A stretch of DNA of 64,000 nt. It comes from Escherichia phage vB_Eco_Solly. Positions 2,186-46,196 of the stretch are shown piece after piece (position 1 is the stretch's first letter; each line of letters starts with the position of its first letter). The notes beneath the pieces were generated by a model that did no database searches, was not told the origin of the DNA, and saw only the letters and a program-made list of their open reading frames with translations. Position numbers and translations under genes: made by a program. The stretch lies in the sequence record OY720021, one strand, 5' to 3'.

Positions 2186-3810
<1,625 letters not shown>

Positions 3811-43883: not shown

Positions 43884-44100
43884 ATTGTTTTTCCGTTAAT
43901 ACAGTAATATCATAGTAACAATCGGAAGAAGTTTTAACTGTGGAAATTTTATTATCAAAATACTCACGAGTCATTTTATGAGTATAGTATTTTTTACCAT
44001 AAATGGTAATAGGCTGTTCTGGTCCTGGAACTTCTAACTCGCTTGGGTTAGGAAGTGTAAAAAGAACAACGCCAGAAGTATCTTTAAATCGTAAAATCAT
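43837..44100 (-). CDS. hypothetical protein (nrdA.2 position)
   Basis: 87-aa ORF. Confidence 0.55.
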
Positions 44101-44957
44101 ATTGCCATTTTCCCTTTAATTGCCGGATGCGATTCATAATTTTCAAGGATAAAATCTTTCGGTTTCATGTATTCAGTTAACCAGTAAAGCTGTGTTTCGG
44201 TGTCACAATTTCCAAACTCTATAGGCCAATCAATTTTAAGTTCACACAGTTCTTTAGGCTCACGACGTAAAATTTCTTTACATTGTTCTACGTGATTCAT
44301 ATAGATATGAGTATTACCACCAGAAAATATCAAATCTCCTGGGATAAGATTACACATCTTAGCCATAATATGCGTCAAGGCAGCGTACGAGGCAATGTTG
44401 AATGGCAAGCCCAAGAAAACATCTACACTTCTTTGGTACCACTGTAAATCAAGATAACCATTACGCACATTAAACTGATAGAACATATGACAGGGTGGTA
44501 ATGCCATTTGATTGATTTCAGCTGGATTCCATGCTGAAACGATTTGACGTCGATCAGTTGGTAATTTTTTAATACGATCAATAGTTTCAACTAATTGATC
44601 CACACCACCGAAATCACGCCATTGTTTACCATATATAGGACCCAGTTCACCACTATGATATCCTAGGTCTTTAGCTTGGTTTTCATAATTGTCATCCCAG
44701 ATAGTTTTACCTTGAATAAGACTACCGTGAGTAAGAAGACGTAAATCATTAACATTGGTAGAACCGGAAATAAACCATAAAAGCTCAGCAATGCATGCAT
44801 TCCAGGCGAGCTTCTTAGTTGTTACTGCAGGAAAACCTTTACTTAAATCCCAGCGTAATTTAGTACCGAACAAAGCAATTGTTCCTGTGCCCGTTCGGTC
44901 ATCGGTTTCATAGCCATTTTCAAAAATGTCTTTAATTAAATCTTGGTATTGTTTCAT
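44097..44957 (-). CDS. td: thymidylate synthase, uninterrupted
   Basis: 286-aa continuous ORF with catalytic-Cys motif [10 protein letters not shown]; no intron. Confidence 0.97.
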
Positions 44958-45002
44958 TTAGTACCTTATATAAATTATAATACATTTTATGAAGCTAAAT
45001 AA

Positions 45003-45350
45003 TCAATACGGTTTAGCATCAAATTTTCTCTCAATTTCAGGCGTGAAATATAATTCTTTACCGCGTTTGGAAAAGCGACCAATAATATGATAATTATTCT
45101 CATCAAACGTGATATTACCAATATCCATAGCTTTCAACCAAATATCGATATTTCTATCCAACTTTATGTCAAAATTCCAATACGGAGAACTATTACCGAA
45201 AATACTGCAAGCGGATTCAGTAAAACAACTACTATAAATCTTATCTTTAGGAACTACTAATTGATAGACACCTTTAATAAACTGAGGACCCTGCCATTTT
45301 GGTTGTTTCGTGTCTTTTTCTAATAGAATAGGGTAATAATTAAAATTCAT
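45003..45350 (-). CDS. hypothetical protein, 115 aa, lying between frd and td
   Basis: Intact ORF co-oriented with the frd-td operon; no motif recognised. Confidence 0.6.
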   Translation of the reverse strand: MNFNYYPILLEKDTKQPKWQGPQFIKGVYQLVVPKDKIYSSCFTESACSIFGNSSPYWNFDIKLDRNIDIWLKAMDIGNITFDENNYHIIGRFSKRGKELYFTPEIERKFDAKPY

Positions 45351-45369
45351 ATTTCCGCCACGCGTTATT

Positions 45370-46196
<827 letters not shown>

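Follow-up and report, generated by a model that had tools for sequence, protein, structure and literature searches.

td.1, a conserved small gene between frd and td of Tevenvirinae phages, appears to have been deleted from T4

Between the dihydrofolate reductase gene frd and the thymidylate synthase gene td of Escherichia phage vB_Eco_Solly lies a short open reading frame (ORF) which, on sequence identity, is td.1, an already annotated hypothetical gene belonging to PHROG 1928. We consider it highly probable that td.1 is a genuine ancestral gene of the Tevenvirinae and that T4 lacks it through a deletion; our best guess for its product is a non-enzymatic binding or accessory protein. The sequence analysed (record OY720021; hereafter the window) is 64,000 nucleotides long, and coordinates refer to it unless another locus is named.

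Identification of td.1 and evidence for purifying selection

As an earlier reading of the letters without database searches (the sequence-only reading) had noted, the ORF listing of the window contains an ATG-initiated frame of 115 codons, starting with MNFNYYPILLEKDTKQPKWQGPQF and followed by a TGA stop, that is co-oriented with frd upstream and td downstream (Table 1). The same reading had placed the frame within the dNTP-synthesis operon and had recognised no catalytic motif in it; the frame is indeed located among nucleotide-synthesis genes, and no such motif was detectable in domain and profile searches. Escherichia phage UFV-AREG1 (Tequatrovirus) shares 99.9% identity with this region. 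The predicted product matches PHROG 1928, a family annotated as of unknown function, at E = 1e-35 over residues 4-111 of 115, and is 99.1% identical both to Td.1 of T2H (AY262132.2, ABI48932.1) and to the T6 protein, and 97.4% identical to that of RB32; the RB32 and T6 records carry the gene under the name RB32ORF229c. The family motifs QxKW, (H/K)G(I/V)Y and GRFxKxGxxxxF are all present, represented by residues Q16, W19, G27, Y29, G91, R92, F93, K95 and G97.

Table 1. Features of the frd-td.1-td interval in the window
Feature	Position	Strand	Basis
frd (dihydrofolate reductase), 193 aa	45370..45951	-	ORF list; 96.9% aa identity to T4 Frd
Left 9-bp direct repeat TAAATGAAA	45368..45376	-	T4 comparison, repeat search, RB32 record note
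frd-td.1 spacer, 19 nt	45351..45369	-	Sequence
td.1 CDS	45003..45350	-	ORF list, phrog_1928 match, T2H Td.1 identity
td.1-td spacer, 45 nt	44958..45002	-	Sequence, consensus scan, spacer comparison
416-bp segment missing in T4	44952..45367	-	Window vs T4 alignment
Right 9-bp direct repeat TAAATGAAA	44952..44960	-	T4 comparison, repeat search
td (thymidylate synthase), 286 aa, intronless	44097..44957	-	ORF list; 84.6% nt identity to T4 td exon 1

Literature searches on td.1, RB32ORF229c and phrog_1928 returned nothing, and the ORF is not discussed in the UFV-AREG1 genome paper or in a 2010 review of T4 relatives. In public records (MZ501065, MZ501050, MZ501047, OR125554, PQ571308 and MW749000) the gene is labelled 'putative homing endonuclease', 'putative glucose-1-phosphate adenylyltransferase' or 'putative dihydrofolate reductase'; no search performed here backs any of these labels.

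Comparison of alleles revealed an excess of synonymous over non-synonymous differences in td.1. The window allele differs from that of T2H by 15 synonymous changes and one non-synonymous change (binomial test for synonymous excess, p = 1e-10), from that of NHEP29 by 29 and 10 (p = 4e-14), and from that of AlbertHofmann by 32 and 10 (p = 6e-16), with the differences piling up at third codon positions (e.g. 2/0/14 across the three positions). Across the allele comparisons, dN/dS lies between 0.01 and 0.13, as low as for td and below that of frd. Judged by these patterns td.1 is under strong purifying selection, and the synonymous excess, together with the orthologues in many genera described below, argues against a frame that arose by chance. 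Since td.1 is already annotated as hypothetical and shared by most T-even phages, finding it in vB_Eco_Solly reveals nothing special about that genome.

Distribution of td.1 and its orthologues

With tblastn, td.1 was identified in 580 of 50,697 phage records, at one place per record and in one copy per genome. Identity to the window reached at least 90% in 362 of these records, all from T-even-type phages, including T2, T6 and RB32; 14 records at 90-95% identity include Mosigvirus carriers, and the other 218 records, at less than 60% identity, belong to other genera. The fused junction of T4 type, counted with a 50-bp query and a stricter E-value, was found in only 32 records, comprising T4 isolates, RB55, RB59, vB_EcoM_112, HY03, SG1, G28, F1, FN, JEP6, FL12, FL18 and G2133. 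The sequence-only reading had called the ORF extra; by the two counts it is not an unusual one. Whether T4 and its close relatives carry the same ORF, a question which that reading had also raised, receives a divided answer: the relatives T2, T6 and RB32 do, and T4 does not.

Diverged orthologues of td.1 also occupy the frd-td interval of nine further Tevenvirinae phages from various genera, namely Enterobacter phage MY742, Edwardsiella phage PEi26 (Kanagawavirus), Klebsiella phage Mineola (Jiaodavirus), Erwinia phage Cronus (Roskildevirus), Salmonella phage STML-198 (Gelderlandvirus), Klebsiella phage Potts1 (Marfavirus), Citrobacter phage Moon (Moonvirus), Serratia phage CHI14 (Winklervirus) and Escherichia phage EcS1 (Kagamiyamavirus). 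The start of the orthologue abuts the frd stop or overlaps it by 1-23 nt in eight of the nine, an arrangement which suggests translational coupling in these genera; in Cronus a paralogue comes first. Two metagenomic T4-like contigs have the same layout, with td.1 proteins 63-66% identical to that of the window, and additional family members occur in Karamvirus and in T4-like phages of Proteus, Morganella, Providencia and Yersinia. Across the nine phages identity to the window is 27-47% for td.1, 45-55% for Frd and 71-81% for Td, so that td.1 identity drops roughly in step with that of its neighbours, consistent with their having long been inherited together at this site. In EcS1, a gene annotated as a homing endonuclease was observed on the opposite strand directly after td (locus L012, 3515-4273), where it overlaps the td 3' end and replaces nrdA.2 and nrdA.1.

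Beside the td.1 orthologue, before td, a second ORF of about 113-144 aa is found in eight of the nine phages (Mineola being the exception) and in both contigs. It is a tandem paralogue, with the same motifs and the same PHROG assignment (for example at 2287-2634 of locus L010 and 2832-3173 of locus L013), and is distinguished by an inserted PTIxxYKxxP segment; the window protein, the orthologues from other genera and this second paralogue match PHROG 1928 at E-values from 1e-16 to 1e-37. As judged from these gene orders, Tequatrovirus keeps one of two paralogues seen in most other genera and has lost the second copy. When all six-frame ORFs were scanned with a family HMM, in the window as well as in the 8-kb gene 32-to-nrdB region of T4, no td.1 paralogue was detected elsewhere.

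Searched exhaustively with a profile, 1.84 billion representative proteins (50% identity representatives) yielded only 45 matches at E <= 0.001, most of them 95-139 aa long. Long multi-repeat matches (P0037, P0044, P0046 and P0048), corresponding to beta-propeller/DUF5122, PKD and type IX secretion-tail proteins, were rejected as relatives because they match one 30-residue hairpin repeatedly. By these searches the family is found only in Tevenvirinae, and it is confined to phages of Enterobacterales.

Origin of the T4 frd/td junction

The T4 genome (NC_000866) has no gene between frd and td, which share 4 nt (ATGA). The sequence-only reading was thus right on this point, for which it had named Purohit and Mathews 1984, where the T4 frd stop is said to overlap the td start; the junction is also contained in GenBank entry M12742. 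The flanking genes are the same as in the window, and the T4 locus differs in having no intervening gene and in possessing a td intron with I-TevI.

Direct alignment put the length missing from T4 at exactly 416 bp, refining the roughly 410 bp given earlier. T4-type flanks align with td.1-bearing phages as two pieces at 100% identity, and the T4 junction corresponds to the window sequence minus the 416 bp and one copy of TAAATGAAA, of which exactly one copy is left. The two window copies (family D1 of the repeat search) have a spacing of 416; the left one spans the frd stop TGA (45370-45372) and makes a mini-frame ATG AAA TAA, and the right one spans the td start ATG (44955-44957). The repeat exists because the region of the frd stop resembles that of the td start, and the edges of the 416-bp segment are ambiguous within it, 44961-45376 being equivalent to the interval in Table 1. 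The RB32 record annotates this segment as 'flanked by 9 bp repeat'.

The sequence-only reading had described the segment as an insert, a direction of change that is most likely wrong given the frd-linked orthologues in nine phages and two metagenomic contigs. Since orthologues follow frd in all of these, T4 is most simply explained as a deletion derivative, and its ATGA overlap appears to be a deletion scar and not the ancestral arrangement. The ancestral site of td.1 would have been directly after frd and before td, and in T4 and a few near-identical phages the gene would have been lost by a precise 416-bp deletion between the two repeat copies, which would have created the frd/td overlap. 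Such a deletion would have joined the start-codon contexts of the td.1 and td genes. Deletion between short direct repeats is well documented in T4.

The distribution of td.1 in Mosigvirus complicates this history. RB69 has the order frd-ATGA-td without td.1 (locus L019, 6384-6387), a junction common to 127 Mosigvirus-type records, and by this comparison RB69-type phages represent a parallel absence of the gene. Both reference phages, T4 and RB69, thus lack a gene on which, in their relatives, purifying selection is as strong as on thymidylate synthase. td.1 is present, at 93% amino acid identity to the window, in a minority of the Mosigvirus phages (NHEP29, NHEP36, SF, PHB12 and AlbertHofmann). 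NHEP29 has td.1 joined directly, at ATGAA, to an frd of RB69 type (96.9% aa; locus L015, 1001-1004), and DNA similarity to other td.1 carriers starts exactly at the td.1 start codon. This junction looks like a gain or re-arrangement by microhomology, and start-codon microhomology seems, from the junctions compared, to mediate both loss and gain. Tequatrovirus and Mosigvirus would accordingly share a presence/absence polymorphism in which td.1 can be lost as well as regained when co-infecting phages recombine.

The Mosigvirus junctions also bear on the converse proposal, that td.1 is a laterally mobile cassette, the fused junction being the older state in Tequatrovirus and Mosigvirus and the 9-bp duplication having been left by recombinational insertion. 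The repeat does flank the segment in the manner of a target-site duplication, and its left copy holds the first two td codons followed by a stop; presence and absence of the gene are both seen in each of the two genera, td.1 is 93% identical between them where Frd is 59% identical, and the fusion of RB69-type frd to td.1 in NHEP29, with similarity only from the td.1 start, also speaks for it. However, orthologues of 27-66% identity occupy the same position in the nine phages and two metagenomic contigs, domain searches identified no transposase, integrase or nuclease domain, and the mosaic is explained by ordinary homologous recombination between co-infecting phages without active mobility. 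Because the outgroups fix a deeper ancestry, we regard a pure insertion as improbable. A transposable element or MITE with a 9-bp target-site duplication was also considered and rejected: the sole terminal inverted repeat consists of 9 AT-rich nucleotides, about the chance level (an estimated one expected), no transposase is present, and there is a single copy per genome. Loss of td.1 could likewise not be tied to the td intron or to I-TevI homing, as many intron carriers (T6, AV121 and Pu-Krd-SF4 among them) also have td.1; the intron was found in about 197 records.

td.1 is not the only difference from T4 at this locus, although the sequence-only reading had called it the clearest one in gene content. 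An 81-aa ORF at 45951-46196 (-) lies directly upstream of frd, with its stop overlapping the frd start; it corresponds to phrog_3183 (annotated as of unknown function) and to RB32ORF231c of the T6 record, and is also absent from T4, where 22 bp correspond to the 203 bp of window positions 46173-45971. With both this ORF and td.1 missing, T4 is without small ORFs on both sides of frd.

Predicted structure of Td.1

AlphaFold2 models of Td.1 had a pLDDT of 84 and a pTM of 0.80 when built with 10 sequences, rising to 90.4 and 0.84 with 43 sequences. The confident prediction is that the protein, of about 13 kDa, folds into a compact domain made up mostly of beta strands and a single helix (residues 68-76), the model strands lying at about residues 6-12, 27-34, 38-40, 48-50, 62-64, 80-82, 86-96 and 99-104. 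W19, G91, K95 and G97 are invariant in 43 of 43 sequences, and Q16, G27, Y29, F93 and F102 nearly so; the conserved residues include an aromatic/basic cluster formed by W19, Y29 and R92-F93-x-K95-x-G97. The isoelectric point of the window protein is near-neutral to mildly basic, and across the family it ranges inconsistently from 5.2 to 9.5.

Searches with the protein returned no family in Pfam (at E up to 1), NCBIfam or PADLOC for the window protein or for 18 family members. A sequence-profile search of the PDB gave only noise (E 0.29-0.42) and no nuclease; in PADLOC-DB the window protein had no match, and one family member matched JetA at E 0.07, which we regard as noise. Structural similarity to flavin-reductase-like split beta-barrels with a flavin/NAD(P)H-binding site was not significant for the model. 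Having a confident predicted fold, no detectable solved relative and no Pfam entry, the Td.1 family presents a clean small target for functional studies in T2 or T6.

The model also raises the possibility that Td.1 is a small OB-like beta-barrel which binds nucleic acid, for example as an RNA or single-stranded DNA regulator of the gene cluster. The predicted order strand-strand-strand-helix-strand-strand resembles OB topology, a weak Foldseek list is enriched in the OB folds of SSB, RPA, cold-shock proteins and CusF, and the aromatic and basic residues that are invariant belong to the kind employed in base stacking. We nevertheless think this reading rather unlikely.

A further proposal is that td.1 encodes a free-standing homing endonuclease, as it is annotated in the BASEL phages FelixPlatter, AndreasVesalius and AlbertHofmann. 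The setting is suggestive, given that the gene lies between conserved genes, is polymorphic in presence and absence, and adjoins td, the target gene of I-TevI. However, no HNH, GIY-YIG or LAGLIDADG domain was found in Td.1, the Pfam search of the 18 members was empty, and fold matches to I-CreI and I-MsoI are noise; an endonuclease function is therefore very hard to credit.

Possible functions of Td.1

With no catalytic signature and an inconsistent isoelectric point across the family, Td.1 most probably acts by binding a partner and not by catalysis. The estimates given here for its possible functions are neither exclusive nor additive. Our preferred guess, a tentative one with the odds against it, is that Td.1 assists Frd and Td, the enzymes of the thymidylate cycle, as an accessory or adaptor protein in the dNTP-synthesis machinery of the phage. 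A stronger version, in which the family constitutes a previously unrecognised, possibly new-fold accessory subunit that physically couples or regulates Frd and Td in the dNTP-synthesising complex of Tevenvirinae, is considerably more doubtful. Were it true, Td.1 would be a separately encoded counterpart of the linker in DHFR-TS, lost from T4 and RB69, which are the models for that complex. In the bifunctional DHFR-TS of protozoa and plants, the junction peptide between DHFR and TS is a covalent linker within one protein. The order of parts is the same as in frd-td.1-td, although td.1 encodes a separate protein, predicted to be folded, and the likeness is offered as an analogy only.

Parallels are also provided by Frd.1/DUF5417, Frd.2, Frd.3, NrdA.1 and NrdA.2, pre-replicative T4 proteins encoded in the same gene block, which like Td.1 are small and phage-restricted, hold conserved positions among nucleotide-metabolism genes, and lack enzyme motifs. 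They differ from Td.1 in sequence, as the family HMM found no relationship across the 8-kb T4 region. One of them, Frd.2, belongs with GoF and MotB.1 to an LSm-like family (PMC12152347).

td.1 is dispensable in the laboratory, to judge from T4 and RB69, and strongly conserved in nature. The former, together with the lack of an enzymatic signature and the restriction of the family to phages of Enterobacterales, would suit an accessory protein that serves host takeover or anti-defence and lies between frd and td only incidentally; among the small pre-replicative proteins of T4, most of those characterised act on host factors. Against this, the position of td.1 is fixed in many genera and its dN/dS is as low as that of thymidylate synthase, whereas counter-defence genes are usually patchy and fast-evolving, and no PADLOC-related match was found. 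A host-directed role is a possibility that we take seriously while considering it unlikely.

Expression signals and mosaic structure of the locus

A Shine-Dalgarno-like GGCGGA is present 5' of td.1 at 45354-45359, and the calculated duplex energy with the 16S 3' end (-4.8 kcal/mol) is similar to those of td (-4.0) and nrdA.2 (-5.3). td.1 would presumably be co-transcribed with frd and td before replication, within the frd-td-nrdA run, and translated from this site of its own.

T2H, RB32 and T6 carry the same gene at the same position between frd and td, with the same 9-bp flanking repeat. The td.1 of the window differs from theirs in nothing substantive, except that it adjoins a different td allele (86-87% aa identity to T2H and RB32 Td), a contiguous 286-codon gene which is therefore intronless. 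The encoded Td is divergent, at 86-88% amino acid identity to those of T2H, RB32 and NHEP29 (dS about 0.9-1.2), and the td.1 beside it is 93-99% identical to the alleles of the same three phages. As these allele comparisons indicate, a mosaic boundary lies between td.1 and td, and the whole block is mosaic.

At the td.1-td spacer, a consensus scan identified a promoter-like TTGATT-18-TATTAT at 45006..44977 (-). In a by-eye reading of the same spacer, we also observed a MotA-box-like TTAGCTTCA at 44990-44998, followed after 12 nt by TAATTT at 44972-44977, with a TATAAT at 44974-44979. These elements may represent a putative additional promoter of td, of the middle class and peculiar to the T2-type arrangement: in the Mosigvirus carriers of td.1 the spacer measures 13-15 nt, and the 30 nt of the window spacer in which they lie are missing from it.
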